Sequence record: MN850587.1
Direction: 5' to 3' (one strand)
Origin: Escherichia phage mistaenkt
DNA length: 64,000 nt
Below are positions 1 to 64,000 of the stretch, one piece after another. A model generated the notes under the pieces. It was not told the DNA's origin and did no database searches. It was given only the letters and a program-made list of their open reading frames with translations. How positions within the stretch are numbered: the stretch's first letter is position 1; each line of letters opens with the position of its first letter. Position numbers and translations under genes: made by a program.

Positions 1-583
1 TACCGGACATTTCAAAGCCACCTTTTAGGACTTTACCAATGTCAAACAGGCAACAGTTAATACCACCAAATACCAAATCTCTCAGGTCATGAATGTAGAT
101 GAAACCTGCTTCAATAGCTTCAAGTTCTTCTGGTGTCAAGTGATACTGCTTGAAGATTTCTTTAGTCAGGTAGCCACGAATGATAGAACCTTTTGTAGAG
201 ATTAAGCTACTGTCAAAGTTAGCATTCTCACGGTCACCTAAGAAGAGGGTATCTTTGGTCTTCTGATAGAGTTCATCCCAATTCTGTGCAACCTCTTTAC
301 GATAGTTACGATAGGTTGAATAAGATTCATAAATCTCGTGATTAACTTCTGCTAAAGCCCCTTCAACAATGCTGTGAATGTCATCTACAGAAATCAGCAA
401 AGTATTCTGGTTAGAAGCCTTTACAAGAATCCGCATAAAAGCTGACTCAAGAGCATGGACAACCTCTAACGGGAGTTCTTTATAGCCAACTCGGTTAGCT
501 GACTTTGTAACTGCTGCTAGGACTTTCTTAATATCTGGTTCTTCAAGTGAGCCATTCTTTTTAATAATTTGTACTTTGACCAT
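1..583 (-). CDS. nrdD: Anaerobic (class III) ribonucleoside-triphosphate reductase, N-terminal portion; gene continues off the left edge
   Basis: ATG at 581-583 preceded by AAGGAG; ATP-cone-like N-terminus then IHDLRDL...GGINCCLFDIGKVLKGGFEMSG, which matches the conserved NrdD block as I recall it from E. coli NrdD; C-terminus not in window. Confidence 0.75.
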   Translation of the reverse strand, partial: MVKVQIIKKNGSLEEPDIKKVLAAVTKSANRVGYKELPLEVVHALESAFMRILVKASNQNTLLISVDDIHSIVEGALAEVNHEIYESYSTYRNYRKEVAQNWDELYQKTKDTLFLGDRENANFDSSLISTKGSIIRGYLTKEIFKQYHLTPEELEAIEAGFIYIHDLRDLVFGGINCCLFDIGKVLKGGFEMSG

Positions 584-601
584 TTGTGCTCCTTTATATA
601 C

Positions 602-623
602 GAAAAAGGTCTCCGAAGAGACC
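602..623 (-). terminator. Intrinsic terminator-like hairpin (GGTCTC-TTCG-GAGACC plus T-run on minus strand) just upstream of nrdD
   Basis: Perfect 6-bp stem, 4-nt loop, followed on the minus strand by TTTTT; same stem-loop recurs at 4709-4732. Confidence 0.5.
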
Positions 624-629
624 CTTATA

Positions 630-2453: not shown

Positions 2454-4688
2454 TTAAACTCCGCAACCTTCACAGTAAGCGTCTTGGAGTGCTGACTTAC
2501 CAACACCAATACGACTGTTAAGGTAGTACATAGTTTTCATCCCAACTGAGTTAGCATAAATCATGTACTTCAAAGCTTGCTCTAATGATACCTTTTTCGA
2601 TTTTGAATAGTCAACATAGAAATCTGAAGAGATAGCTTGACCAGTGAATTTTTGAACAATTGCATAGCAATCAATCATATCAAAGGTGTCAATATCCCAA
2701 GCAATTTCATAGACATACTTCAACTCTTCGTAATCTGGAACGATAAATAAAACGTTACCAGTTGCTGACTTCTTGGTTAAGATGAAGTCACGAATTGGGT
2801 ACAAACCATTTGTCGTATTAGTTGCCAGTGAAGAACTCTCATTAGGCATGTAAGCCTCAAGTACAGAGTTTCTGATACCACCATTTGCTTTAATACGGTC
2901 TGCTAAGTCATCCCAATCATAACGAAGTTTTGCATCGTGTTTTGTATCAATCTTCCTGTTAGCTGTCTTCGGAGGAACCCAACCTTCAGGATACTTGGTG
3001 AACTTCATATATTCAGGTACACCACGCTCTTTTGCAAGTCTTAGTGAAGCCTCATGCAGATAGTAAGAGTGCATCTCTGCAAGTTCATGTAGCTTCGTTT
3101 TACCTGCTCTTGAAGAATAGTTCACGTAGTTCTTCGCAAGGTAGTGAGCCACATTCGTAAGGCCAATCCCAACAGAACGACGTTTCTGAACGTGGTTACG
3201 CATTGACGGATACGGATAGTCCATAAGGTCAATAACGGAGTCAACCATTGCAAGAGCATAATAAGCAACGTCAGCGTATTCATCTTCTGTGATTCTCCCT
3301 GCTACCAGACTAGCTAAGAAGCAAAGAGCAACTTCACCATCTTCTTTAGGTGCTGTGTAACTGTAAAGGTCACGTTCATCTTCAAACCCGTAAACTGGCA
3401 GTATAATTTCCATGCACAAGTTAGACATTTTCAAAGCTTCTTTAAACGGTGTGTGTGTGTTCGCATTGTTCGTAAAGAACGGATACACACGACCTGTGGC
3501 ATAACGTTGCTGGATGAACAGCTTGGCAACTTCACGAGCCTTAACACGTTTATGCTTAACACCTGAATGCACTGCGTGACCGACTGCCATAGCAAACTCA
3601 TCAGCAGATGCTGTGTAGAACATGTCATAAAGCTTTGGAGCGTCCTTGTAAGAGAACAGCAACCAATCTGTGTCATACTGTACACACTGCCAGAAATAGT
3701 CATTTGCACCAAATGAATAGTCCATCTCATTAATACGCTTCGAAGGAACCGTTGTAGGATGCTTCAAACGCAGTAAATCTTCAATCTGCGGGTCTAGGGC
3801 AGTATAGAAGTTGTTAGCTGAACCACCACGACTCTTCTGCTTATTGGCCTCTACAGCAGCACGTACAAGCTTGTAGTAAGGAAGCTTACCCATGTGTTCA
3901 ATGGTGTTTTGACGAATACCATCACCAATTGTACGGGTCTCCATAAGCATACCAATACCAGCTTGCTTGGTGGTCATATCATAAGCTACCTTAGTAGCAA
4001 TGCCAAGAGACTCAGCAGTGTCATTAGCCTTGATTAAGCAGCATGACGCATAACCTGACTTAGTAGCACGTAAACCATTCAGATAAGGCGTAGGGGCGTT
4101 AATCTTCAGGTCAGACAGGTAAGTGTACAGCTTGATAACATCTTCCAGTCTACGGTGCTTAGGTTGTCTCTCAAAGGCTTTCATAGCCATACCCATAAAC
4201 ATAAATTGTGGGGATTCAAACAGACGACCTGACTTGATATCTCGGATGCCATACTTGTCACGGAACTGTTTCAGTACTGCATAACCGTAAGAGATATCTT
4301 TTGAGTGAACAATGTGACCTTGTAAATAGTCAATCTCTTGTTCGGTGTAATCCATGTGTTCCCACAAACCCATTTGCTCCATCTTCATAACGAAGTTGAA
4401 CAGTTGAGGAACTTTTGTGAAACCACCAAAGGCTTCTTTGTAGATGATACCAAGGAGTAATCGACCAGCCATATCAGAGTACTCTTGAGTCTGCTTATCA
4501 ATACAAACGTCAATCATAGCTTGGTGCATCTCTTTGGTAGAGCAACCTTCATAAACACGCTTCATGGCTTCCATAGTTACTTCTGACCAAATGATTCCTC
4601 GTTTGTCAGCCCATGAAGCCCATTTGTTTAAACGTTCTGGTTCGAATGGCACGATTGTACCGTCAGATTTGCGAATGGTCTTAATCAT
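2454..4688 (-). CDS. nrdA: Ribonucleotide reductase class Ia large (alpha) subunit
   Basis: 744 aa; N-terminal ATP-cone (MIKTIRKSDGTIVPFEPERLNKW), overall RNR large-subunit character, operon with nrdB and glutaredoxin. Confidence 0.9.
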   Translation of the reverse strand: MIKTIRKSDGTIVPFEPERLNKWASWADKRGIIWSEVTMEAMKRVYEGCSTKEMHQAMIDVCIDKQTQEYSDMAGRLLLGIIYKEAFGGFTKVPQLFNFVMKMEQMGLWEHMDYTEQEIDYLQGHIVHSKDISYGYAVLKQFRDKYGIRDIKSGRLFESPQFMFMGMAMKAFERQPKHRRLEDVIKLYTYLSDLKINAPTPYLNGLRATKSGYASCCLIKANDTAESLGIATKVAYDMTTKQAGIGMLMETRTIGDGIRQNTIEHMGKLPYYKLVRAAVEANKQKSRGGSANNFYTALDPQIEDLLRLKHPTTVPSKRINEMDYSFGANDYFWQCVQYDTDWLLFSYKDAPKLYDMFYTASADEFAMAVGHAVHSGVKHKRVKAREVAKLFIQQRYATGRVYPFFTNNANTHTPFKEALKMSNLCMEIILPVYGFEDERDLYSYTAPKEDGEVALCFLASLVAGRITEDEYADVAYYALAMVDSVIDLMDYPYPSMRNHVQKRRSVGIGLTNVAHYLAKNYVNYSSRAGKTKLHELAEMHSYYLHEASLRLAKERGVPEYMKFTKYPEGWVPPKTANRKIDTKHDAKLRYDWDDLADRIKANGGIRNSVLEAYMPNESSSLATNTTNGLYPIRDFILTKKSATGNVLFIVPDYEELKYVYEIAWDIDTFDMIDCYAIVQKFTGQAISSDFYVDYSKSKKVSLEQALKYMIYANSVGMKTMYYLNSRIGVGKSALQDAYCEGCGV

Positions 4689-4708
4689 TATTTTAGAGTC
4701 CTACAGGT

Positions 4709-4732
4709 GAAAAAGGGTCTCCGAAGAGACCC
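4709..4732 (-). terminator. Intrinsic terminator-like hairpin (GGGTCTC-TTCG-GAGACCC plus T-run on minus strand) just upstream of nrdA
   Basis: Same stem-loop core as 602-623; followed on the minus strand by TTTTTCAC. Confidence 0.5.
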
Positions 4733-6341: not shown

Positions 6342-6842
6342 TTATTCTCTCTCGTTAAGTTTCATGATTTTATGGATTCTCTTCTCAGCATCTTCATAAG
6401 TCTCTTTGGTAAGAAACTTGATTGCTGCAATGTTTGCATTGTAGAAGAGTCGAAGCTTGGAGTCAATCCTTTTTGTCATGACGTCAAACTTATGTTGGAG
6501 GTTAGCTTCTCCGTAGACCAACCCACCTCGCGTATAATAAGTTTGCACAATATAGAAGTCAAACTCTTTTTCACCGAAAGTTTCAATATCTTTCTTAATG
6601 TACTCAGAAGAGGTCTGGTAAACCATCCAGTCACTCTCTTTTGTCACAATCTTACGTCTGGCCTTTCCAGCTACTTTCTTCTTGGTGACATTGTTAAACT
6701 GCTTCTTACCAATGTAATACTGTCCAGTCTTTTTGCAGTACACTAAGTAAACGAAACCAAAATACTTAGCGGGGTCAATCTCCCCGCACAGTGAAATCCA
6801 ATGCCCATATTCAGGGCAATTGCCAAAACCTTTAATCTTCAT
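6342..6842 (-). CDS. GIY-YIG family homing endonuclease (166 aa)
   Basis: GFVYLVYCKKTGQYYIGKK matches the GIY-(10-11 aa)-YIG motif; free-standing between replication genes. Confidence 0.65.
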   Translation of the reverse strand: MKIKGFGNCPEYGHWISLCGEIDPAKYFGFVYLVYCKKTGQYYIGKKQFNNVTKKKVAGKARRKIVTKESDWMVYQTSSEYIKKDIETFGEKEFDFYIVQTYYTRGGLVYGEANLQHKFDVMTKRIDSKLRLFYNANIAAIKFLTKETYEDAEKRIHKIMKLNERE

Positions 6843-7884
6843 TCATAACAGGCTCCCAACCATATTTAGCAAATGTGAAGTCATCTTTCGGATTACGCTC
6901 TTGATAGGCAATCCAGAAGTGCTGGTGCATAAGTTCAAGAGGTGTTCTTGTGACCACTTGACCATCCCATGATTCATAAGTATATGACTCTTTCTTAGCG
7001 TAAAGTTCATAGATAGCATCAAGACACTCTTTGTAAGTCTCTTTACCTTCCAGAGCGTTCATTACAGCAACTTTCCCTGCACCCTTAAGGCCAAAGTAGT
7101 TATCTGCGTTGTCTCCTGCTACAGCTTGATAGCAGAGGAATTTGAAGCCTACACCAACAGTCTTTTTAGCTTTCGGCTTAGACTTGATAGGGCAATCCCA
7201 AATATTACCTACGTTACCGTCTGCAATGAAAATCAGAGGGGCTTTCTCGTAAGTCATATCAATACAGTAAGTTCCTTCCGCTTGGCGAAGGTCTTTATCA
7301 ATACTCATAAGAGCAGCCTTCTTACCCATCTTCTCAGCTTTTGCAATAACAATGGAGTCAGCTTCAAAGCCACCTTTGAGAAGCTTAAACTCAGGTCGTG
7401 ACAGAAGATACTCACGACAAGCAACTAAATGCGTAGGGGTTACTGATTCTTTACGGTTACCTTGATACTGGTGTTCAAGACCTTTAATGTCTTTGTGTTT
7501 ATGTACACCTTTCTCAGTGAGGTATCCCATCCAAGTTCGCTCTTTACCAACAACTTTCAACCATTCCTGAAGAACTTGTTGAGTTGCCATAATAGCTTCT
7601 TTTTCACTCTTAGCTTCTTTCCAAGATTGTCTTTCCCATTCATCTTCATCGAATGCAAGACCAAGTTCCTCTGTTAGAACTCTCTGGTCAGATAGCCATT
7701 GATTAGCATCTTTAGCACTTTCAAAGGCATCAGACTCTTCAGCAGTGAGTTTATTCACATACTTGTACTTTGCTTTCTCAACGACACAGGCTCCCTTGTA
7801 AGCAATACTGTCAGAGTCAATAAAGACATGTGTCACAGTATCTGGGAGTTTTGTTAACGTGTACTTTTCCATTTGTATCTCCAA
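6832..7884 (-). CDS. 5'-3' exonuclease / flap endonuclease (RNase H-like)
   Basis: 350 aa; N-terminal HVFIDSDSIAYKGA resembles the FEN/5'-nuclease acidic active-site start, GLKGAGKVAVMNAL resembles the H3TH region; position among replication genes. Confidence 0.55.
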   Translation of the reverse strand: MEIQMEKYTLTKLPDTVTHVFIDSDSIAYKGACVVEKAKYKYVNKLTAEESDAFESAKDANQWLSDQRVLTEELGLAFDEDEWERQSWKEAKSEKEAIMATQQVLQEWLKVVGKERTWMGYLTEKGVHKHKDIKGLEHQYQGNRKESVTPTHLVACREYLLSRPEFKLLKGGFEADSIVIAKAEKMGKKAALMSIDKDLRQAEGTYCIDMTYEKAPLIFIADGNVGNIWDCPIKSKPKAKKTVGVGFKFLCYQAVAGDNADNYFGLKGAGKVAVMNALEGKETYKECLDAIYELYAKKESYTYESWDGQVVTRTPLELMHQHFWIAYQERNPKDDFTFAKYGWEPVMNED

Positions 7885-7887
7885 TAC

Positions 7888-7916
7888 GAAAAAGCCCCAT
7901 ACTAAGTACAGGGCTT
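7888..7916 (-). terminator. Hairpin AAGCCC...GGGCTT followed on minus strand by TTTTTCGTATTGGAGATACAA then ATG
   Basis: Inverted repeat plus T-run; shares the tail motif TTTTTCGTAT(T/G)GGAGATA with the element at 12206-12233. Confidence 0.4.
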
Positions 7917-7934
7917 TGTAGTAACTACTGAGAA

Positions 7935-8852
7935 TTAATCTTCAGTATCGAAATCTTCTTCGTCGTCGTCATCTGGGTCTGGCATATCATCGTCGTCATC
8001 GTCAGAGTTAGTATCTTCAGAATCCTTCGCATCTTCTTCGGTGATTTCACCGTTATCTTCAACGCCATCCAGACCAAGCAGAGCCAGTTCATCTTCATCC
8101 AGTTCAGGCTCACCGTTACCACCTGTACCACCAGTGTACGGAACCAGAGTATCAATGATAAACTGTTCCTGAATCGGCTTCGTCAGAACGTTGCTTTCAA
8201 AAGTGTAGAAGTGAGTTGCAAGAATCACACTACCAAATGAACCGTTGCCGACTGCGATATCTGGGTGAATAACATCATAAGTTTTGTCGTCATCGTGTTT
8301 GTCAGAATGTTGAGCCTTGATTTTCTTCATCGGCTGTTTAACTGCAACACGCTTACCGTTAACTTCTTCAATCAGCATAACAGGGAATGACTGTTTCGCT
8401 GTCCAGACTGCACCATCTTTATAAGCAGCAGCACGACTTACTTTCAGAATGTGATAAGTGTCTGCTTCAAATGGTGGTTTGCAACCGAACTTCTCTTCAA
8501 AGTCATCTGCATCAACAGCTTCAGTTGTAACCTTATCCCAACCATCAGGATTCTTTTTAGACTTGGTGAACTCTTTGAAGAGTTTGTTACCATCTTTTGC
8601 CAGAATTGAAACACTGTAGTTACAATCTTTGCCTGGGAATTTCTTATCAACTGATTTACCTTTTCCCGGACGTGGAATAGTATTCAGGTAGTAGAACCAA
8701 ACATCTTTTAGCAAGTAACGCAGAGTCTGACGTTCAGTACCGTTGTATTTTTCTACCGGAGATTTCATTTTAACAACTTTAGACATTCTTAAATCCTCTT
8801 TCTCAAAATTATTTCTTTCAAACTTGAAGGAGTACAATCTTACAGACTTCAT
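7935..8852 (-). CDS. Putative ssDNA-binding protein with strongly acidic C-terminal tail
   Basis: 305 aa; C-terminus DDDDDDMPDPDDDDEEDFDTED typical of phage SSB tails; position next to primase-helicase; alternative start near 8783. Confidence 0.45.
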   Translation of the reverse strand: MKSVRLYSFKFERNNFEKEDLRMSKVVKMKSPVEKYNGTERQTLRYLLKDVWFYYLNTIPRPGKGKSVDKKFPGKDCNYSVSILAKDGNKLFKEFTKSKKNPDGWDKVTTEAVDADDFEEKFGCKPPFEADTYHILKVSRAAAYKDGAVWTAKQSFPVMLIEEVNGKRVAVKQPMKKIKAQHSDKHDDDKTYDVIHPDIAVGNGSFGSVILATHFYTFESNVLTKPIQEQFIIDTLVPYTGGTGGNGEPELDEDELALLGLDGVEDNGEITEEDAKDSEDTNSDDDDDDMPDPDDDDEEDFDTED

Positions 8853-8871
8853 ACTCCCTTGTCAAACACTT

Positions 8872-9009
8872 TTAAGCAGATTTTTTAGCTGCTTTACGTG
8901 CTGTCTTACCAGTGCGAACACGTTTTGCTTCGTAGTGTGCAGCAGATTTACCAGCAGTTGCTTTCAGTGAATCGCCAAATACTTTTTCAAACGCTTTAGA
9001 ATGTTTCAT
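8872..9009 (-). CDS. Unlisted small basic ORF (45 aa, MKHSKAFEKVFGDSLKATAGKSAAHYEAKRVRTGKTARKAAKKSA)
   Basis: Below the 60-aa track cutoff; ATG overlaps the stop of the upstream ORF (ATGA); Lys/Arg-rich. Confidence 0.3.
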   Translation of the reverse strand: MKHSKAFEKVFGDSLKATAGKSAAHYEAKRVRTGKTARKAAKKSA

Positions 9010-9287
9010 ACAACTCTCCGATAAATTTCGTATTCAAATGTTTTGTCAGTCAACTTAAACATATATCCAGTATCATTGTCAACAGAAACTAAGATTCCAT
9101 CAAGGCCAATCTCAATCTCTCTGTGCTCTAACTCAACCGTATGCCCTTCGTTGATGAGTACTTTACAGAAATTGTCTATACGAGTCAAGCACTCTTTTTT
9201 AAATTTTACTGAATTTGTTTCTTCATAGAAGGGCGTAAAGCCCTCCTTAAGATACGCATCAGTCAGTTTCAAACGGGCAGTCATCAT
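9006..9287 (-). CDS. Hypothetical protein (93 aa)
   Basis: ORF track only. Confidence 0.45.
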   Translation of the reverse strand: MMTARLKLTDAYLKEGFTPFYEETNSVKFKKECLTRIDNFCKVLINEGHTVELEHREIEIGLDGILVSVDNDTGYMFKLTDKTFEYEIYRRVV

Positions 9288-11256
9288 CTTCTCCGTCTTC
9301 GTTTAATACTGGTGGAATAGTATAACTTTGACGTTGCTCTTGAGTGTAAATCTCTCCAGTCTCACGGTCAAAGACTTCATCATCATAATGCGGCATAGAG
9401 TCATCGTAGTGGTCATCGGCTTCACCAATACCAAACTGCTGACGAATATTCTCTGCTGCACCATCAATATCAACACCACTACCAGCAGCCTTGATAAGAC
9501 GGCCTGTATCTGGATTATACCAAGTGTGACCAGCAATACCAGTTGACTTACCATGACGACGACATTTCGTTAACTTGATTTTGGTCAAGTTTTTCTTAAC
9601 AGGGTCTGGGTCAACCTTGTTACGCATTAACAGAATGTTGTTCATGGAAATCTGGAAGTATGCACCAGAACCCTTGATATCCTCTTCAGAAATATCACCA
9701 CCTTCAGAGTTAGCCTTCTGACCACCTGCACTCTTACGAACGTGACAGACGTTTACCTGTGCATATTGGTAACGCTTGCAACGACGCAACAGTTCAGACA
9801 AAACTTCTTCTTCATCCGTATCAGAACGTGACAGAGCCAACGTGATAGGGTCAAGAATAATAATCTTACAGTCTAAGCTGTTAACCAGATAGTCAACAAA
9901 CTCTAACAGGTTATCTTGGTCGATTGCCCCTTGGTGGTCAACGATATGGATACGACGACCAGCAGACAACTCAGCATGTGCAACCTTGATTTCATCCCAA
10001 TTACGTTCATCGTAAGGAATCTCTGAAATCTGTTTGCTAAGGTGAATTGCACAGAGCATCTCCATTAACTCTTCGTAAGTATCTTCTACAGGAATCACAC
10101 CGATATTGTAATCAGTTTCCTTCCAAGCAGTATAAATCATTTCACGAGTGTAAGCTGATTTACCTACTGAAGATGGTGCTGCCAGAGTTGTAATCTCACC
10201 TAAACCGTAACCGCCATAAGTCAGTCTGTTCAAATCTCCGAAAGATTCTGGGAATGGAATCAGTGGAATCTGACCACGATTCTTCATTGCCTCAAAACCA
10301 TCTGCGAAGTTCTTGATACCAGCAGGGCAGTATCGAGGTGCATTATAGATACGCTGTTTAAATCCTTCCAGTACTGTATCTTTCTCTTTATAAAACTTAG
10401 TCCACCATTCATTCAGGTCTTTGACACCTTCTGGATACTGGAATAAGCGAACCTTCTCAATCGGAAGAATACCAGCAGCCTCTTTAGTGGCTTTTGCACC
10501 TGCTTCGTCGTTATCAAAGCACAGGTAAATCTCATCAAATGATGTGATGTACTGATAGTTGTCTTTGATAGACTTAATGTTTGCACCTGATGGAACAGAT
10601 ACGTGACAGTAATTCTTACGACGAGACTTATCTTTAATTGCCAGAGAAGTCATGTAGATTGCTGTAGCACATTCCATCTCACCTTCCCAGATGAAGAGAC
10701 GGTTACCACCTTCTGGAGCAATCCATGAACCGAACATTGCCAGTTCACCTTTAATGTCACCTACACCACCTGAGAAGTCTTTCAGCTTACCACGAAGATG
10801 CTCTTTCGGATGGTCTTCTGGGTAACGGTGACGAACACGGTAACCTACATGCTCAAGCTTTCCATTTTCATCTTTCTTGTAAGTTGGGTAAAAGTGTGCA
10901 TCAATTTCACCTTCACCATCTACATCAACCTTGATACCAAGACGGTCAAGCACCTTTGCAGGAATCTTACGGTCTTTCAAATCCATTGCTTCAAGGTTAT
11001 CTTTTACATCGTCTAAATCCATACCACGGAAAGTACGATTTTTATTGTCTGAACCAGTAGAATAAGTACTCACAATTTGCCCTTTATCAAAATCCCACTC
11101 TGGAAAACCCTTGTTGCAACTAAAGCAAGTCATCGAATAAGAATCATCGTCATGATGATAGATTGAACCAGCATCTGATGAACCACACTTAGGGCAAGCA
11201 CAATGACCAACAAACTGACCAGCTTCCTTCAATTTACGACCTTTAGACATTAGCAC
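9259..11256 (-). CDS. Bifunctional DNA primase-helicase (zinc-ribbon/TOPRIM primase fused to DnaB-like helicase)
   Basis: 665 aa; N-terminal Cys4 zinc ribbon (CACPKCGSSD...CFSCNKG), central TOPRIM-like region, C-terminal Walker A (LAAPSSVGKSAYT) and RecA-like helicase motifs. Confidence 0.88.
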   Translation of the reverse strand: MLMSKGRKLKEAGQFVGHCACPKCGSSDAGSIYHHDDDSYSMTCFSCNKGFPEWDFDKGQIVSTYSTGSDNKNRTFRGMDLDDVKDNLEAMDLKDRKIPAKVLDRLGIKVDVDGEGEIDAHFYPTYKKDENGKLEHVGYRVRHRYPEDHPKEHLRGKLKDFSGGVGDIKGELAMFGSWIAPEGGNRLFIWEGEMECATAIYMTSLAIKDKSRRKNYCHVSVPSGANIKSIKDNYQYITSFDEIYLCFDNDEAGAKATKEAAGILPIEKVRLFQYPEGVKDLNEWWTKFYKEKDTVLEGFKQRIYNAPRYCPAGIKNFADGFEAMKNRGQIPLIPFPESFGDLNRLTYGGYGLGEITTLAAPSSVGKSAYTREMIYTAWKETDYNIGVIPVEDTYEELMEMLCAIHLSKQISEIPYDERNWDEIKVAHAELSAGRRIHIVDHQGAIDQDNLLEFVDYLVNSLDCKIIILDPITLALSRSDTDEEEVLSELLRRCKRYQYAQVNVCHVRKSAGGQKANSEGGDISEEDIKGSGAYFQISMNNILLMRNKVDPDPVKKNLTKIKLTKCRRHGKSTGIAGHTWYNPDTGRLIKAAGSGVDIDGAAENIRQQFGIGEADDHYDDSMPHYDDEVFDRETGEIYTQEQRQSYTIPPVLNEDGEDDDCPFETD

Positions 11257-11434
11257 CTCTGCGTTGTAGTTCTGCTTTTAAGCCATTTTCAATCTTGTCT
11301 AGCTCGTGAATCTCTTCTGCAATCTCTTTCCGTCTTGAAGCGACCCTTTCAAGTCGCTCCATCATAACTTCTTTGGAAAGAGATGAGAGTTCCACCGAAC
11401 GATGGTCAACAACTTCTAAATTATTTACTCTCAT
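11243..11434 (-). CDS. Small coiled-coil protein (63 aa)
   Basis: ORF track only. Confidence 0.4.
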   Translation of the reverse strand: MRVNNLEVVDHRSVELSSLSKEVMMERLERVASRRKEIAEEIHELDKIENGLKAELQRRGANV

Positions 11435-11445
11435 CTTTATCTCTC

Positions 11446-12189
11446 TTATTTAATGATAATAGCTTTCAGCTTATTTTCGAGGTCTTCAAGGCTACCATTG
11501 TTTTGAATAATGTCACGTTCAAATTTGGTAGAAATCCCATTTTCTGATTTATGTGATGAAACCTTAACCAGATTGTCTCTTTTTACCTCAATGATTTGGC
11601 TGTCAAAAGACTTTAAGAACTCTGCTTCATGGTCAAAACGTAAGTCACTAATCAGTGCAATACCATACTGGTTAGCTTTTGAGCATGATTCAAAGAACCT
11701 TTCCATTCTTTCTGCAAGGTCACGAATCCAGAACTTCTCTCCAAGAACTTTCCTGACAACTTCAGTTCCCCAGATTTGTTGAATCTGACGTGAAGAGAAT
11801 TTGTAAGTTTTACTAAGTCCCATTCTGGTTAACAGAGTTGGTTTAGCAACCTTCTTCAGTTCCATGATTAATCGTCCAGTTAGCTCACCACATAACTTGA
11901 CGTCAAGATGCAAGTTTTTGTGTGGGAATACCTGTTCAAGTGACCATTGAACTGCAAAGTACAGGTCAGAGAATCTTAAGTTGAACTTTTGAGGTGTCTC
12001 TTTAGTTTCACCATACAAATCGTTCCAGTCAAGGCCAAAGATGTATGCAGCAGATTCTTTTAAACTGTCTGCAAAAGCAAAGATGTGAACATTGCAACCT
12101 TCCTCATCTTGAAGGAAGTTCTTTACCAACATGCAGGAAGTGTCCTTACCAGAACGAGCCTTTCCAGTAAATGCAATAATACTTTTCAT
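11446..12189 (-). CDS. Deoxynucleoside monophosphate kinase
   Basis: 247 aa; N-terminal P-loop IAFTGKARSGKDT resembles the start of phage dNMP kinases. Confidence 0.7.
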   Translation of the reverse strand: MKSIIAFTGKARSGKDTSCMLVKNFLQDEEGCNVHIFAFADSLKESAAYIFGLDWNDLYGETKETPQKFNLRFSDLYFAVQWSLEQVFPHKNLHLDVKLCGELTGRLIMELKKVAKPTLLTRMGLSKTYKFSSRQIQQIWGTEVVRKVLGEKFWIRDLAERMERFFESCSKANQYGIALISDLRFDHEAEFLKSFDSQIIEVKRDNLVKVSSHKSENGISTKFERDIIQNNGSLEDLENKLKAIIIK

Positions 12190-12205
12190 ATACCATTATC
12201 TCCAT

Positions 12206-12233
12206 ACGAAAAAGCCCCCAATTAAGGAGGCTT
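12206..12233 (-). terminator. Hairpin AAGCC...GGCTT with downstream T-run on minus strand, upstream of the dNMP kinase gene
   Basis: Inverted repeat read directly; imperfect. Confidence 0.3.
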
Positions 12234-12249
12234 TGGGAAAACAATTCTA

Positions 12250-13053
12250 TTAGTGAATCTGCGTAGAATCAAGCTTTTCTTTATCAGACAGAGCCTGAAT
12301 AGTTGCTACAAATTCATCACCAAAGTGGATGGCAATCTTGTCTTGAAGAACTGCTGCACCAGTTTGCATAATCACTTCTCGCAGGGCTTCACCACTTACG
12401 TTACCAGCAATCTGCTCTACAAACTCAATAGGTGCATCAATCAAACCTGCAACTTCAAACAGAGCGTGAATGCTCATCACGGTGATGATTGAAGGAACCA
12501 GAGCAGTCAGTTTGACTTGAATCTCATCAAGGCCACGTTCAGCTTCATTGTCAACAACCTCTTGAAGTTGCTCTTTGGTCAGTTTCACCATTTCCTGTGA
12601 ACGCTCAAAGATATCTGCAAAACCCCAATCAAGTTTTTCATAGCGTGGAAGTTTCTCTTGAACACGCTTCTCAAGTACAGCCATCACACTTGCAATTGAG
12701 TTGATAATCAGGTTGAAGGTCTCGTCTTCAGTGAACTCAAGCAGTGCTTCTTTCTCTTCTTCAGAGAGAACTTTGTAGTCACCAGTTTGCATCTTGTCAA
12801 AGACATAACCAGCAAAGGCATCTACACCAACAGCTACTGAAGCCAGAGCCAGTTGACGGTTATTCAGAAGCAGTTCAACCTGCGAGCGAAATGCTGACTC
12901 ATCAGAGATTTCTGCATTAACCTGATAAGATTCAGGAGTTGCTTGTGAACTGAAGGTATTGCTACGCATAACGATAGCAAGGCTTTCAACAGTGTTCAGC
13001 ATAAAGTTACTATCAATACCTTTGGAGGCCAGCATTTCATTTACAGTAGTCAT
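12250..13053 (-). CDS. Hypothetical protein (267 aa)
   Basis: ORF track only. Confidence 0.5.
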   Translation of the reverse strand: MTTVNEMLASKGIDSNFMLNTVESLAIVMRSNTFSSQATPESYQVNAEISDESAFRSQVELLLNNRQLALASVAVGVDAFAGYVFDKMQTGDYKVLSEEEKEALLEFTEDETFNLIINSIASVMAVLEKRVQEKLPRYEKLDWGFADIFERSQEMVKLTKEQLQEVVDNEAERGLDEIQVKLTALVPSIITVMSIHALFEVAGLIDAPIEFVEQIAGNVSGEALREVIMQTGAAVLQDKIAIHFGDEFVATIQALSDKEKLDSTQIH

Positions 13054-26502: not shown

Positions 26503-27651
26503 TCAAGCAGTTCTCTGCCATACATATAGAACAAATGATGGCTGTTCAATGTTAAATGCCTGACCAGAACCAGTTGAGCCAGTTGTACCAGAGTGAGAGT
26601 GTTCACCTGCACCTGTAACAGTTACAGTAGCAGTATGCGAGTGGCTACCAATTGATACAGAGTGGCTATGAGCACCAATCGCTACAGTATGAGTGTGCGC
26701 ACCAATCGCTACAGTGTGCGTATGGTTGTTAGCGGTTGTCAGAGTGGCTCTTGGGTCATAGTCTGCACCAACTACTGAAAGTCCCGGATGACTCCCTGGG
26801 TCATAACCACGGTTAATCCACGTTGTCTGAGTGAATCCAGCAGAACTCGTAGTTTTATTACCATAGTTAAATGATGATGTGGTCTTAGTACCATAATCAA
26901 ATGTTGTAGTGCTTCTATTCCCATAGTCAAATGAACTGATTGAAGCAGTTGCACCATGTGAGTGACCACCACCTGTAACGTACACTGAGTGAGTGTGAGC
27001 AGGGATGTTATTAGCTGTCAATGCAGCAGTCTGAGAACCAAACGTAGAACCTGCTGGTCTCGAAGCACTATCATAGCCTACAAGTGCTCTACCTCTTGAA
27101 ACTAGCTCCCAAGTACCTCCACAAATCAGGTAAGTAGATGGGTTAGCAGCATTCATAGACAAGTGGATAGTACCCACTGGATACGAAGCCTGAACAGCCC
27201 TGTATAGACTATTAACTGCTCTTGCTGTAGCATACTTATCAGCATCTTCATTATATGCGTTAGAGGCTAACCAGTTCTGAACATTACCCAAGCCAACTTG
27301 TGATTTAGTTGTATTGTGAGGGTTGTTCTTGTCATTAATGTGAGCCTGAATAAGTTGATTAACTTCATCAGAAGACATAATCTGTAAGTTCGCTCTTGCT
27401 TCAGCTACGTCAACGATATCTGATAAGTTATTTGCAGCGACAAGCTGTAAAGCGTTTAATACGTTACCTAACTCAACCTGAACCTTTGTAACACCGTGAG
27501 GGTTATTTCTCAAGGATGCGTGAGGGTCAAGTAATTGTTCAAGTGTACATCTTTTGTCTTCAATACCTTGTTTAAGGTGGAAGATATCACTTAGCTCAAT
27601 TGGTAACGACGCTTGAGGCAAGGCACTAATTTGAATTTCACCTACTGCCAT
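26503..27651 (-). CDS. Second tail fibre protein with His-rich (HxH repeat) C-terminal tip
   Basis: 382 aa; C-terminus ...NNHTHTVAIGAHTHTVAIGAHSHSVSIGSHSHTATV...YVWQRTA, paralogous to the tip of the 733-aa fibre. Confidence 0.75.
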   Translation of the reverse strand: MAVGEIQISALPQASLPIELSDIFHLKQGIEDKRCTLEQLLDPHASLRNNPHGVTKVQVELGNVLNALQLVAANNLSDIVDVAEARANLQIMSSDEVNQLIQAHINDKNNPHNTTKSQVGLGNVQNWLASNAYNEDADKYATARAVNSLYRAVQASYPVGTIHLSMNAANPSTYLICGGTWELVSRGRALVGYDSASRPAGSTFGSQTAALTANNIPAHTHSVYVTGGGHSHGATASISSFDYGNRSTTTFDYGTKTTSSFNYGNKTTSSAGFTQTTWINRGYDPGSHPGLSVVGADYDPRATLTTANNHTHTVAIGAHTHTVAIGAHSHSVSIGSHSHTATVTVTGAGEHSHSGTTGSTGSGQAFNIEQPSFVLYVWQRTA

Positions 27652-63575: not shown

Positions 63576-63840
63576 GCTAAGTAGTTAAATGTTAAGAGTT
63601 ATTTTGTTAAGATAATTAACAAGCTACTAACAAGTCTTTAAAGCTTTTAACATACTATTAACATGGTCACTATCTCTCTGTCTATAGTTCCCTGTCCTTC
63701 TCAGTGATTCTCTAAACATACCTCTTAAAAGCCCTGTATAGCTCTTTATAGCCCCTTCTAAGGTTCTCACTAGTATCTATAGCCCAACTGACTGTATAGC
63801 TCTTTATATCCCTTTACAGGGGCTTATATAGGGACTCCAA

Positions 63841-63912: not shown

Positions 63913-63963
63913 ACTATGTAGGAGTTGTTAAGAATTTGTTAAGAAAATGTTAAGGGGGCTAGC

Positions 63964-64000
63964 TTTTACGTAACTTTATAGCCCCTTTTACGTAACTTTA
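63964..64000. repeat. Direct repeat TTTACGTAACTTTA x2 at the window edge
   Basis: cttttacgtaactttatagccccttttacgtaacttta read directly. Confidence 0.5.

Follow-up and report, generated by a model that had tools for sequence, protein, structure and literature searches.

Two genes of the replication operon of Escherichia phage mistaenkt (MN850587.1), encoding a dNMP kinase and a 5'-3' exonuclease, are each preceded on the minus strand by a GC-rich hairpin and a nearly identical leader, which raises the question of whether these two sites are copies of one regulatory element or separate elements that happen to look alike. An earlier note on this DNA favored a duplicated regulatory unit, a terminator coupled to a re-initiation or translation signal, over independent evolution. 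Here, the whole stretch of 64,000 nt (hereafter, the window) was analyzed, and the two junctions were compared with those of 35 or more relatives. The phage belongs to Suspvirus (Ounavirinae) and is ~97% identical to phages CHB7 and SUSP2. We conclude, with a probability of about 0.8, that the kinase junction (site A) and the exonuclease junction (site B) hold two separate, leaky rho-independent terminators, which abut the Shine-Dalgarno (SD) sequence of the next gene and partition the replication operon. The anatomy of the sites, their positional conservation and the statistics of their likeness are direct observations, whereas actual termination and its leakiness are what we infer from sequence.

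Anatomy of the two intergenic sites

Both sites reported in the earlier note are indeed present on the minus strand, which also encodes all of their neighboring genes (Table 1). The intergenic space is 60-62 nt long with no ORF inside, and a common layout leads from the stop codon of the upstream gene through a GC hairpin of 9-12 bp, U5, a spacer of 5-6 nt and GGAG to the ATG of the downstream gene. Stem polarity is likewise shared, running from AAAGCC to GGGGCUUU and then into U5, a short AU-rich spacer and the SD sequence GGAG(A); at each site the T-run TTTTT overlaps the base of the stem. The stem of hairpin A is formed by 9 pairs around a 6-nt loop (-14.3 kcal/mol, z -3.3), that of hairpin B by 12 pairs around a 3-nt loop (-15.3 kcal/mol, z -4.2); they begin, respectively, 15 nt past the TAA at 12252-12250, which ends the 267-aa gene, and 17 nt past the TAA at 7937-7935, which ends the 283-aa gene. 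With a GC-rich stem of at least 5 bp, a loop of 3-8 nt, a U-run no more than 2 nt away, an intergenic position and co-orientation with the genes, both A and B are classed as predicted rho-independent terminators, and the terminator-like hairpin that the earlier note had placed directly before each RBS is borne out as hairpin plus U-run followed by the SD sequence.

Table 1. Positions in the window of the sites, genes and other elements discussed
Feature	Position	Strand	Description and basis
Site A terminator hairpin	12234-12211	minus	AAAGCCTCC/TTAATT/GGGGGCTTT; sequence and fold
Site A leader	12213-12197	minus	U-tract 12213-12209, CGTAT 12208-12204, GGAG 12203-12200, then ATA
dNMP kinase gene, 247 aa	11446..12189	minus	ATG 12189; Pfam PF21448, E 2e-24; phrog_139
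267-aa gene upstream of terminator A	12250..13053	minus	ORF; phrog_4251
Site B terminator hairpin	7917-7891	minus	AAAGCCCTGTAC/TTA/GTATGGGGCTTT; sequence and fold
Site B leader	7893-7876	minus	U-tract 7893-7889, CGTAT 7888-7884, extra T 7883, GGAG 7882-7879, then ATA
Exonuclease gene, 346 aa, 5'-3' exonuclease / flap-endonuclease-like	6832..7872	minus	ATG 7872; phrog_107, E 5e-62
283-aa gene, poly-acidic C-terminal tail	7935..8786	minus	ORF; phrog_3877, function unknown; Felix O1 gene 104 orthologue
Sigma70-like promoter	8826..8865	minus	TTGACA-N17-TAAGAT, embracing dyad GGAGTA..TACTCC; 10/12 hexamer match
Third terminator with like tail (nrdD-like)	624..581	minus	GGGTCTCTTCGGAGACC 624-608, TTTTTCGTAT 607-598, AAGGAG, ATG 583
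nrdA-like terminator	4732..4686	minus	17-nt hairpin as in nrdD-like one, then TTTTTCACCTGTAGGA..ATG 4688

The finding is real but ordinary, since earlier work on related phages had already predicted or annotated a terminator at either site. Site B corresponds directly, as an orthologue, to t104, given as gccctgtacttagtatggggcttttt in Table 2 of the Felix O1 genome paper, and site A is missing from that table; in Citrobacter phage Michonne, a terminator and an RBS are annotated at both orthologous sites. The layout is a general one: the window itself contains at least 10 intergenic terminators that are arranged in this way and lie no more than 44 nt ahead of the next start codon. The literature searched held no RNA 3'-end or transcript-mapping data for Felix O1-like phages (Ounavirinae). 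At gathering thresholds, Rfam returned tRNAs only; at permissive E-values, it added only matches over hairpin A, to Trp_leader (20.7 bits; gathering score 41) and Phe_leader (22.9 bits; gathering score 55). A leader-peptide attenuator of the Trp/Phe type was rejected on these sub-threshold scores and the lack of a leader ORF.

The kinase start agrees with the SUSP2 annotation, and both downstream genes begin with ATG(G)AAAAGTA. The 346-aa exonuclease matches the Pol I 5'-3' exonuclease domain weakly and below threshold, and relatives annotate its orthologue as an exodeoxyribonuclease with a PIN-like domain. Neither this protein nor the 283-aa protein has a match in Pfam, and searches of PDB sequences gave nothing useful for them.

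Likeness of the two leaders

Sites A and B share GGGGCTTTTTCGTAT and GGAGATA, offset by a 1-nt indel. A search of the window with the pattern GGGGCTTTTTCGTAT-N{0,1}-GGAGATA finds exactly two sites, versus 0 in 100 shuffles; in the complete SUSP2 genome, too, the full leader is present twice only. The similarity behind the leader pattern of the earlier note is real, but its alternative base "(T/G)" is a one-base indel, and the pattern taken literally finds B only, even with three mismatches allowed. A repeated 15-mer is by itself unremarkable in the window, where a census of exact repeats outside the tRNA cluster counted 7 repeat pairs with a length of 15 nt and 11 longer ones (16 nt or more). 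The match of A and B at 22 of 23 positions in identical context is an outlier, with a local alignment score of 20 versus 11 or less for all other terminator-RBS pairs. The P value of this similarity is ~2e-4 when the tails are shuffled and ~1e-3 when stem end, T-run and SD sequence are held fixed and the spacer order alone is shuffled; the similarity therefore extends beyond the GGAG and AT-rich context to which, as the earlier note had allowed, it might have been confined. Since the likeness exceeds what the shared functional parts predict (P ~1e-3), an extra cause is needed, whether selection on the spacer, gene conversion or chance. The part common to both sites (GGGGCTTTTT..TATGGAGA) comprises the 3' arm of the predicted stem, the U-tract and the SD sequence and, to judge from the relatives, is old at both.

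Conservation among related phages

In Felixounavirus, Mooglevirus and Suspvirus, and beyond them in more distant relatives, each terminator stays at its gene junction and has a hairpin core of its own; synteny of the flanking genes extends to all relatives. Hairpin and T-run are retained at both junctions even where the stem sequence has been wholly replaced (L030, L033/34). The site A hairpin is invariant across the three genera; in relatives of 30% identity, a paired deletion drops the U.G pair to give AGCCCC..GGGGCT. Pair-preserving stem changes include U.G to U-A in ESh22, A-U to G.U in L008 and a paired deletion in L028/29, while the loops vary freely. At site B, 10 of the 12 stem pairs are invariant among 10 distinct orthologues and the other two vary one-sidedly while still pairing; 99% of cells pair. 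The loop varies in both sequence and length. Double-sided changes are absent from the three close genera, and the covariation count for hairpin B therefore lends the pairing no statistical support. In the nrdD-like terminator, the hairpin is invariant among lineages and the tail is lineage-variable.

The spacers have different histories. At site B, the spacer is C(G/A)TAT in all lineages compared, and C(G/A)TATGGAGA is kept in all three genera, while at site A the spacer CGTAT is limited to Suspvirus-type phages and reads ATTAT or AGTAATTAA elsewhere; correspondingly, 9 GenBank records have the A-type tail versus 257 that hold B. The direction of these lineage-specific tail changes can be inferred from such comparisons: the two bases that turn ATTAT into CGTAT at A would be a change of the Suspvirus lineage, as would the GGAGATA form at B.

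Proposed expression across the two sites

The sigma70-like promoter ahead of the 283-aa gene is kept in all lineages, with covariation of its dyad, and is unique within the window. Together with terminator B behind the gene, it makes the 283-aa gene a promoter-gene-terminator cassette; the promoter is predicted to drive this gene, whose transcript terminator B would close, and, by read-through, the exonuclease gene. Near site A, the sole promoter candidate (a 9/12 match at 12272-12244, upstream of the hairpin) is unconserved outside Suspvirus. No promoter-like hexamers occur between hairpin and ATG at either site, and only 5-6 nt separate the U-run from the SD sequence, which argues against the re-initiation invoked in the earlier note.

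In the mechanism that we propose, host RNA polymerase would start at the divergent promoter region near 13.5-13.7 kb and at internal sigma70-type promoters, such as that at 8865-8837, and would meet at each site a GC hairpin of 9-12 bp, its base extended by AAA:UUU pairs, and then U5. A fraction of transcripts would stop there, closing and 3'-stabilizing the mRNA of the upstream gene, and the remaining ones would read through into the downstream genes. Since no promoter fits into the 5-6 nt before the next SD sequence, the genes for dNMP kinase, primase/helicase and others (after A) and for the exonuclease and others (after B) would have to be expressed from read-through RNA, and each terminator would consequently act as an attenuator that lowers the expression of distal genes. 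The U-run of only 5 nt, followed by CG, suggests that termination is incomplete, and the placement of SD sequence and ATG directly after the terminator may be put down to the compactness of the genome. In Felix O1, RT-PCR assigned the exonuclease gene (105) to the 5-min class and gene 104 to the 25-min class, a timing that is not predicted by simple read-through from the gene 104 promoter. How transcription passes terminators was left open in the Felix O1 genome paper. On the present reading, the replication module of Suspvirus and Felix O1-like phages would have two of its transcript boundaries at A and B, and both the dNMP kinase/primase block and the exonuclease block would depend on read-through for their expression; beyond annotation, the importance of this result is small.

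The leader might also act on translation. In read-through RNA, the U-tract and CGUAU could pair with the beginning of the gene, from the start codon into the first codons (at A, AUAUGAAAAG; at B, AUGGAAAAG), holding the SD sequence in the loop and throttling translation, and the shared leader would then be under selection to keep this pairing. Leader hairpins are predicted at A (-6.8 kcal/mol, z -2.3) and B (-8.2 kcal/mol, z -3.0), and analogous ones with different sequences at Michonne A (-8.7, z -4.0) and Felixounavirus B (-13.7, z -3.6); in several lineages, the gene's own start region ranks 5th of 97 for leader pairing in this post hoc analysis, and the common ATG(G)AAAAGTA start fits as well. 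However, the pairing is absent at Felixounavirus A (rank 74-81 of 97), at Mooglevirus B (rank 39-47 of 97) and at the third, TTTTTCGTAT terminator (z -0.06), and its stems, which are weak and consist largely of A-U pairs, are what any U-run before Lys/Glu-rich first codons would give. We therefore regard such an operator as decidedly unlikely, and the combined model, in which one short element would attenuate transcription as well as occlude the AUG(G)AAAAG of two replication enzymes and be kept alike by selection or gene conversion, as very doubtful. A still smaller probability is given to the hairpins being RNase sites, or protective 3'/5' stem-loops generated by processing, rather than termination sites. 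Their intercistronic position does resemble that of T7 RNase III sites; RNase III substrates, however, require about two helical turns. A T7-type RNase III site, with an irregular stem of ~20 bp or more, was rejected for stems of 9 and 12 pairs. That the Felix O1 paper does not settle the passage of terminators leaves room for processing, but the stems are short (9-12 bp) and perfect with U5 immediately after them, which is the signature of intrinsic terminators, and the T-run stays with the hairpin even in relatives whose stem sequence has turned over.

Comparison with known systems

As terminators, the sites differ in no essential way from intrinsic terminators known in E. coli and in coliphages and related phages, specifically t104 of Felix O1 and the annotated terminator and RBS features of Citrobacter phages Michonne, Mordin and Moogle, with which they share the GC hairpin, the U-run, co-orientation and a position just past the stop codon. 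Sites A and B also lie between co-oriented genes with no promoter after them and with distal genes on read-through, as operon-internal attenuators do; unlike regulated attenuators, they show no leader peptide, alternative antiterminator or sign of regulated antitermination. Attenuating terminators inside operons set the ratio of proximal to distal gene expression. In phage replication genes, translational operator hairpins adjoin the SD sequence, as in the T4 gene 43 operator. The A and B hairpins are similarly adjacent to the SD sequence of a replication gene, but they carry a terminator U-run, and the A leader is unconserved between genera.

Origin of the shared leader

The units at A and B could stem from one duplication, or gene conversion over short patches, with GGGGCTTTTT and TATGGAGA as anchors, could have homogenized them in Suspvirus. 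The A-B pair stands out from the other terminator-RBS pairs (P 2e-4 to 1e-3), the A leader of the window is nearer to B-type leaders, whatever their genome, than to its own orthologues at A, the change of ATTAT to CGTAT makes the A spacer identical to that of B, and there are other near-identical pairs, namely the nrdD and nrdA terminators, with their 17-nt hairpin in common, and t5 and t35 of Felix O1, which are identical. We nevertheless consider such an origin unlikely. What Suspvirus has gained comes down to one or two events at B and, at A, a pair of adjacent substitutions; the hairpin cores of A and B differ and each is orthologously conserved, and identical short terminators arise in unrelated genomes. 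Moreover, site A is a mosaic boundary, as the upstream gene is 84% and the kinase gene 70% identical to those of L032/L039, so the CGTAT leader may have come in with a different kinase allele. The duplicated unit of the earlier note, or a dispersed repeat, finds no support in these comparisons: A and B are orthologous elements at their own junctions with differing cores and loops, the extra tail identity (CGTAT at A) is confined to Suspvirus-type phages, and the 15-mer and the A hairpin recur in unrelated genomes.

The terminator cassettes might instead be chiefly patches of homology at which phages exchange modules, resembling the PeSLs (promoter-early stem-loops) of T4-like phages, which combine a terminator with an early promoter and flank, in many copies, variable genes in hyperplastic regions (PMC2839356, PMC4122927). 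The site A hairpin is invariant while its flanks diverge, the mosaic boundary relative to L032/L039 falls at this site, and megablast matches of many genomes begin right at the hairpin (query positions 755-768). Unrelated prophage-like contigs, moreover, have one upstream gene joined to differing downstream genes by this terminator and SD sequence. Sites A and B resemble PeSLs as short repeated intergenic cassettes with a terminator stem-loop and a possible recombination point. In contrast to PeSLs, they have no promoter and two copies only, and they are flanked by conserved, syntenic core replication genes rather than located in a hyperplastic region. In addition, pEC-M719-6WT.1 lacks a mosaic junction at A and has its junction between the kinase gene and gene 104. 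A role mainly as linkers is accordingly held to be highly improbable.

The shared 15-mer is found in at least 120 unrelated viral contigs and is the 3' end of a terminator in 110 of the 120, and Vibrio phages, Shewanella and Flavobacteriales contain exact copies of the whole 25-nt site A hairpin with its T-run. Because terminators of 15-25 nt recur verbatim in unrelated genomes, identity between short terminators is no ground for inferring duplication. The idea of a specific mobile terminator was rejected: the matches in IMG/VR and GTDB genomes are scattered over unrelated taxa and have different tails, a distribution that speaks for repeated, independent origins and not for a mobile element, although by a rough estimate the matches seem to exceed the number expected from uniform chance.

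Anatomy of the two terminator-leader sites

The 6-kb stretch around the two sites shares 96-97% identity with Enterobacteria phage CHB7 and Escherichia phages SUSP2 and SUSP1, all of the genus Suspvirus (Ounavirinae), and ~82% with more than 240 Felix O1-like phages. SUSP2 shares the minus-strand gene order around site A, upstream of the dNMP kinase gene, and site B, upstream of the exonuclease gene (see table). The kinase was identified by a match to Pfam PF21448 and the exonuclease by a match to phrog_107, its match to the Pol I 5'-3' exonuclease domain being weak and sub-threshold. The tRNA gene cluster of the window is likewise found in other Felix O1-like phages.

By their anatomy, sites A and B are textbook intrinsic terminators. 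Each comprises a GC hairpin (A, -14.3 kcal/mol, z -3.3; B, -15.3 kcal/mol, z -4.2) on the coding strand, 15-17 nt past the stop codon, with a stem base lengthened by AAA:UUU pairs and a U5 run. Both are members of a general layout in the window, which holds at least 13 intergenic hairpin-plus-T-run sites, 10 of them at most 44 nt ahead of the start codon that follows. In the Felix O1 genome paper, the site B orthologue appears as terminator t104 (gccctgtacttagtatggggcttttt) and that of the nrdD terminator as t116; the paper leaves undecided whether transcription past the terminators reflects read-through or secondary promoters. The features "terminator" and "ribosome_binding_site" are annotated at the site A orthologue in the GenBank records of Citrobacter phages Michonne, Mordin, Moogle and Mijalis, and at both orthologues in Michonne and Mordin. 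Both intrinsic terminators abutting ribosome-binding sites were thus already predicted or annotated.

Positions and sequences of the features discussed
Feature	Strand	Position	Sequence or content
Site A	minus	TAA 12252-12250; hairpin 12234-12211; ATG 12189	TAA..AAAGCCTCC-TTAATT-GGGGGCTTTTT-CGTAT-GGAG-ATAATGGTAT-ATG
Site B	minus	TAA 7937-7935; hairpin 7917-7891; ATG 7872	TAA..AAAGCCCTGTAC-TTA-GTATGGGGCTTTTT-CGTAT-T-GGAG-ATACAA-ATG
Gene order, part 1	minus		140-aa gene, 267-aa gene, site A, dNMP kinase, 63-aa gene, primase/helicase
Gene order, part 2 (after primase/helicase)	minus		two small genes, 283-aa acidic-tailed gene, site B, exonuclease, homing endonuclease
Orthologue of Felix O1 gene 104		7935-8786	
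Orthologue of Felix O1 gene 105 (exonuclease)		6832-7872	
Sigma70-type promoter	minus	8865-8837	TTGACA-N17-TAAGAT
Dyad around the promoter	minus	8826-8865	GGAGTA-N17-TACTCC
Identity boundary at site A		12190-12250	
nrdD terminator	minus	581-624	
Hairpin and tail copy before the nrdD-like gene (sequence of the tail)		598-624	TTTTTCGTAT
nrdD-like and nrdA-like gene terminator hairpins	minus	608-624; 4716-4732	GGGTCTCTTCGGAGACC (17 nt, identical)
tRNA gene cluster	minus	47400-53700	24 tRNA genes
Tandem repeat		26647-26727	27 nt, three copies
Short direct repeats, AT-rich window end		63734-63808; 63963-64000	CTGTATAGCTCTTTATA x2 (58 nt apart); CTTTTACGTAACTTTA x2 (22 nt apart)

Significance of the shared leader

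Sites A and B have in common GGGGCTTTTTCGTAT (15 nt) and GGAGATA (7 nt), separated by a one-base indel. The similarity claimed by the earlier note is real at both sites, but its alternative T/G base is a misalignment of this indel, and the pattern as literally written matches site B only; an indel-aware pattern finds exactly two sites in the window, A and B. An exact 15-mer repeat alone is unremarkable in the window (outside the tRNA cluster, pairs of 15 nt number 7 and those of at least 16 nt number 11). The outlier is the 22/23 match of A and B, which also share their functional context. A and B reach a local score of 20, and no other pair among the window's 10 terminator-RBS units exceeds 11, with P ~2e-4 when the tails are shuffled and ~1e-3 when the stem end, T-run and Shine-Dalgarno (SD) sequence are fixed and the spacer order alone is shuffled. 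Because the score is an outlier by both shuffles, the likeness extends beyond GGAG and its AT-rich context. The A/B similarity is real and statistically non-trivial; a duplicated regulatory unit is not shown by the data. The proposed re-initiation of transcription is unsupported, since no promoter-like hexamers fit between the hairpin and the ATG at either site.

Identity between terminators over such short stretches says little about ancestry. At least 120 unrelated IMG/VR contigs contain GGGGCTTTTTCGTAT, which forms a hairpin 3' arm and tail in 110 of 120 and is followed by an SD and start codon in 29 of 120. The whole 25-nt site A hairpin plus T-run recurs verbatim after unrelated genes in Vibrio phages of two unrelated types, and also in Shewanella, Flavobacteriales, Bdellovibrionales and other genomes, the tails differing each time.

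The matches of 25-30 nt to this hairpin and T-run (AAGCCTCCTTAATTGGGGGCTTTTT) comprise Vibrio phages K478a, 1.004.O and 264E42.1 (L198-L200) and bacterial contigs (L201-L213), a recurrence that by a rough estimate exceeds the uniform-chance expectation. The 5' arm and loop of site A (CCUCCUUA) are identical to the 3' terminus of E. coli 16S rRNA. In unrelated prophage-like IMG/VR contigs (L091, L154, L141 and others), a shared unit of upstream gene end, terminator and GGGGCTTTTTCGTATCTGGAG leads into different downstream genes, and the terminator-SD unit sits at the mosaic junction.

Conservation and history

In a comparison of 33 IMG/VR and 4 GenBank loci, every relative has a hairpin plus T-run ahead of the exonuclease SD, and nearly every one has it directly ahead of the kinase SD; at the kinase site of the most distant relatives, L030 has a hairpin lacking the T-run and L033/34 have no hairpin. 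These exceptions apart, the hairpin plus T-run persists at 30-60% protein identity despite a wholly different stem sequence (L030, L033/34). Stems are invariant within Felixounavirus, Mooglevirus and Suspvirus, and the few stem changes all preserve pairing (U.G to U-A in ESh22, A-U to G.U in L008, a paired deletion in L028/29), while the site B loop varies freely in sequence and length. This pattern points to an RNA hairpin that is under selection and whose place in the operon is fixed, not to a unit duplicated recently. In the distant relatives L028 and L029, the terminator preceding the exonuclease gene carries the two site B arm sequences in exchanged order (GGGTATGGGG-GTTT-CCCTGTACCC versus CCCTGTAC-TTA-GTATGGGG), a swap that is not an inversion and has no obvious route by point mutation.

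The leader part common to A and B in most lineages is GGGGCTTTTT-NN-TATGGAGA, i.e. the 3' arm, U-tract, three spacer bases and SD. The site B tail is C(G/A)TAT everywhere; that of site A is ATTAT in Mooglevirus, L023, L025, L032, ESh22 and pEC-M719-6WT.1, and AGTAATTAA in Felixounavirus. CGTAT at site A (9 GenBank records, 7 phages; site B, 257 records) and GGAGATA at site B are both restricted to Suspvirus-type phages, and the near-identity of A and B is therefore lineage-specific. It probably reflects substitutions at two neighbouring bases of A plus one or two changes at B, which would overlie an old functional resemblance. Gene conversion between the sites could also have supplied the extra identity; however, site A is a mosaic boundary, at which the 267-aa gene on the upstream side shares 84% identity with L032/L039 and 62-65% with other lineages, and the kinase gene ~70% with all of them. 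The CGTAT leader may thus have arrived together with a different kinase allele.

Selection on the leader might alternatively act through read-through RNA, in which the U-tract and tail would pair with the start codon and those just after it. The predicted leader hairpins (A, -6.8 kcal/mol, z -2.3; B, -8.2 kcal/mol, z -3.0), the analogous hairpins that other sequences form at site A of Michonne (z -4.0) and site B of Felixounavirus (z -3.6), and the rank of the leader's own start region, 5th of 97 for pairing across several lineages, agree with this model, but the pairing is absent from Felixounavirus site A, Mooglevirus site B and the nrdD site, making it improbable.

Promoter, mechanism and expression

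A strongly conserved sigma70-type promoter precedes the 283-aa gene in every lineage. Its conservation suggests that promoter, 283-aa gene and terminator B form a cassette, behind which the exonuclease gene would depend on read-through. In the divergent operon, terminator A would likewise divide the leading two genes from those for the kinase and primase/helicase. From their anatomy, both are likely leaky terminators or attenuators, doubling as 3' stabilising hairpins. The published expression basis is confined to Felix O1 RT-PCR classes: genes 98 and 99, on either side of site A, fall in the same class, and genes 104 (25 min) and 105 (5 min), flanking site B, in different ones. The latter split is at odds with simple read-through from the gene 104 promoter.

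The promoter is embraced by a dyad spanning the -10 element and start site, which has no second copy in the window, covaries by genus (AGAGTA..TACTCT in Felixounavirus, GGTGGGTA..TACTCACC in L028/29) and could be an operator, e.g. for autoregulation of an SSB-like protein.

The tail at other terminators

Four copies of TTTTTCGTAT lie in the window, and the complete SUSP2 genome also has four. A terminator hairpin comes before three of them; the one of these that is not at site A or B precedes the nrdD-like gene, where the tail is lineage-variable and the hairpin invariant. A T-run followed by YRTAT is found at 5 of 13 terminators versus 1 of 146 other runs of at least 5 T (Fisher P 9e-6), and this excess suggests a preferred sequence after the U-tract. 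The pause consensus is G(-10)/Y(-1)/G(+1), and the fit of U5-C|G to it at the expected release position is one possible reason for the preference. The hairpin shared by the nrdD-like and nrdA-like gene terminators is replaced at the Felixounavirus nrdA terminator by GGAGCCTCTTCGGAGGCTC, in which the stem covaries and the UUCG loop is unchanged.
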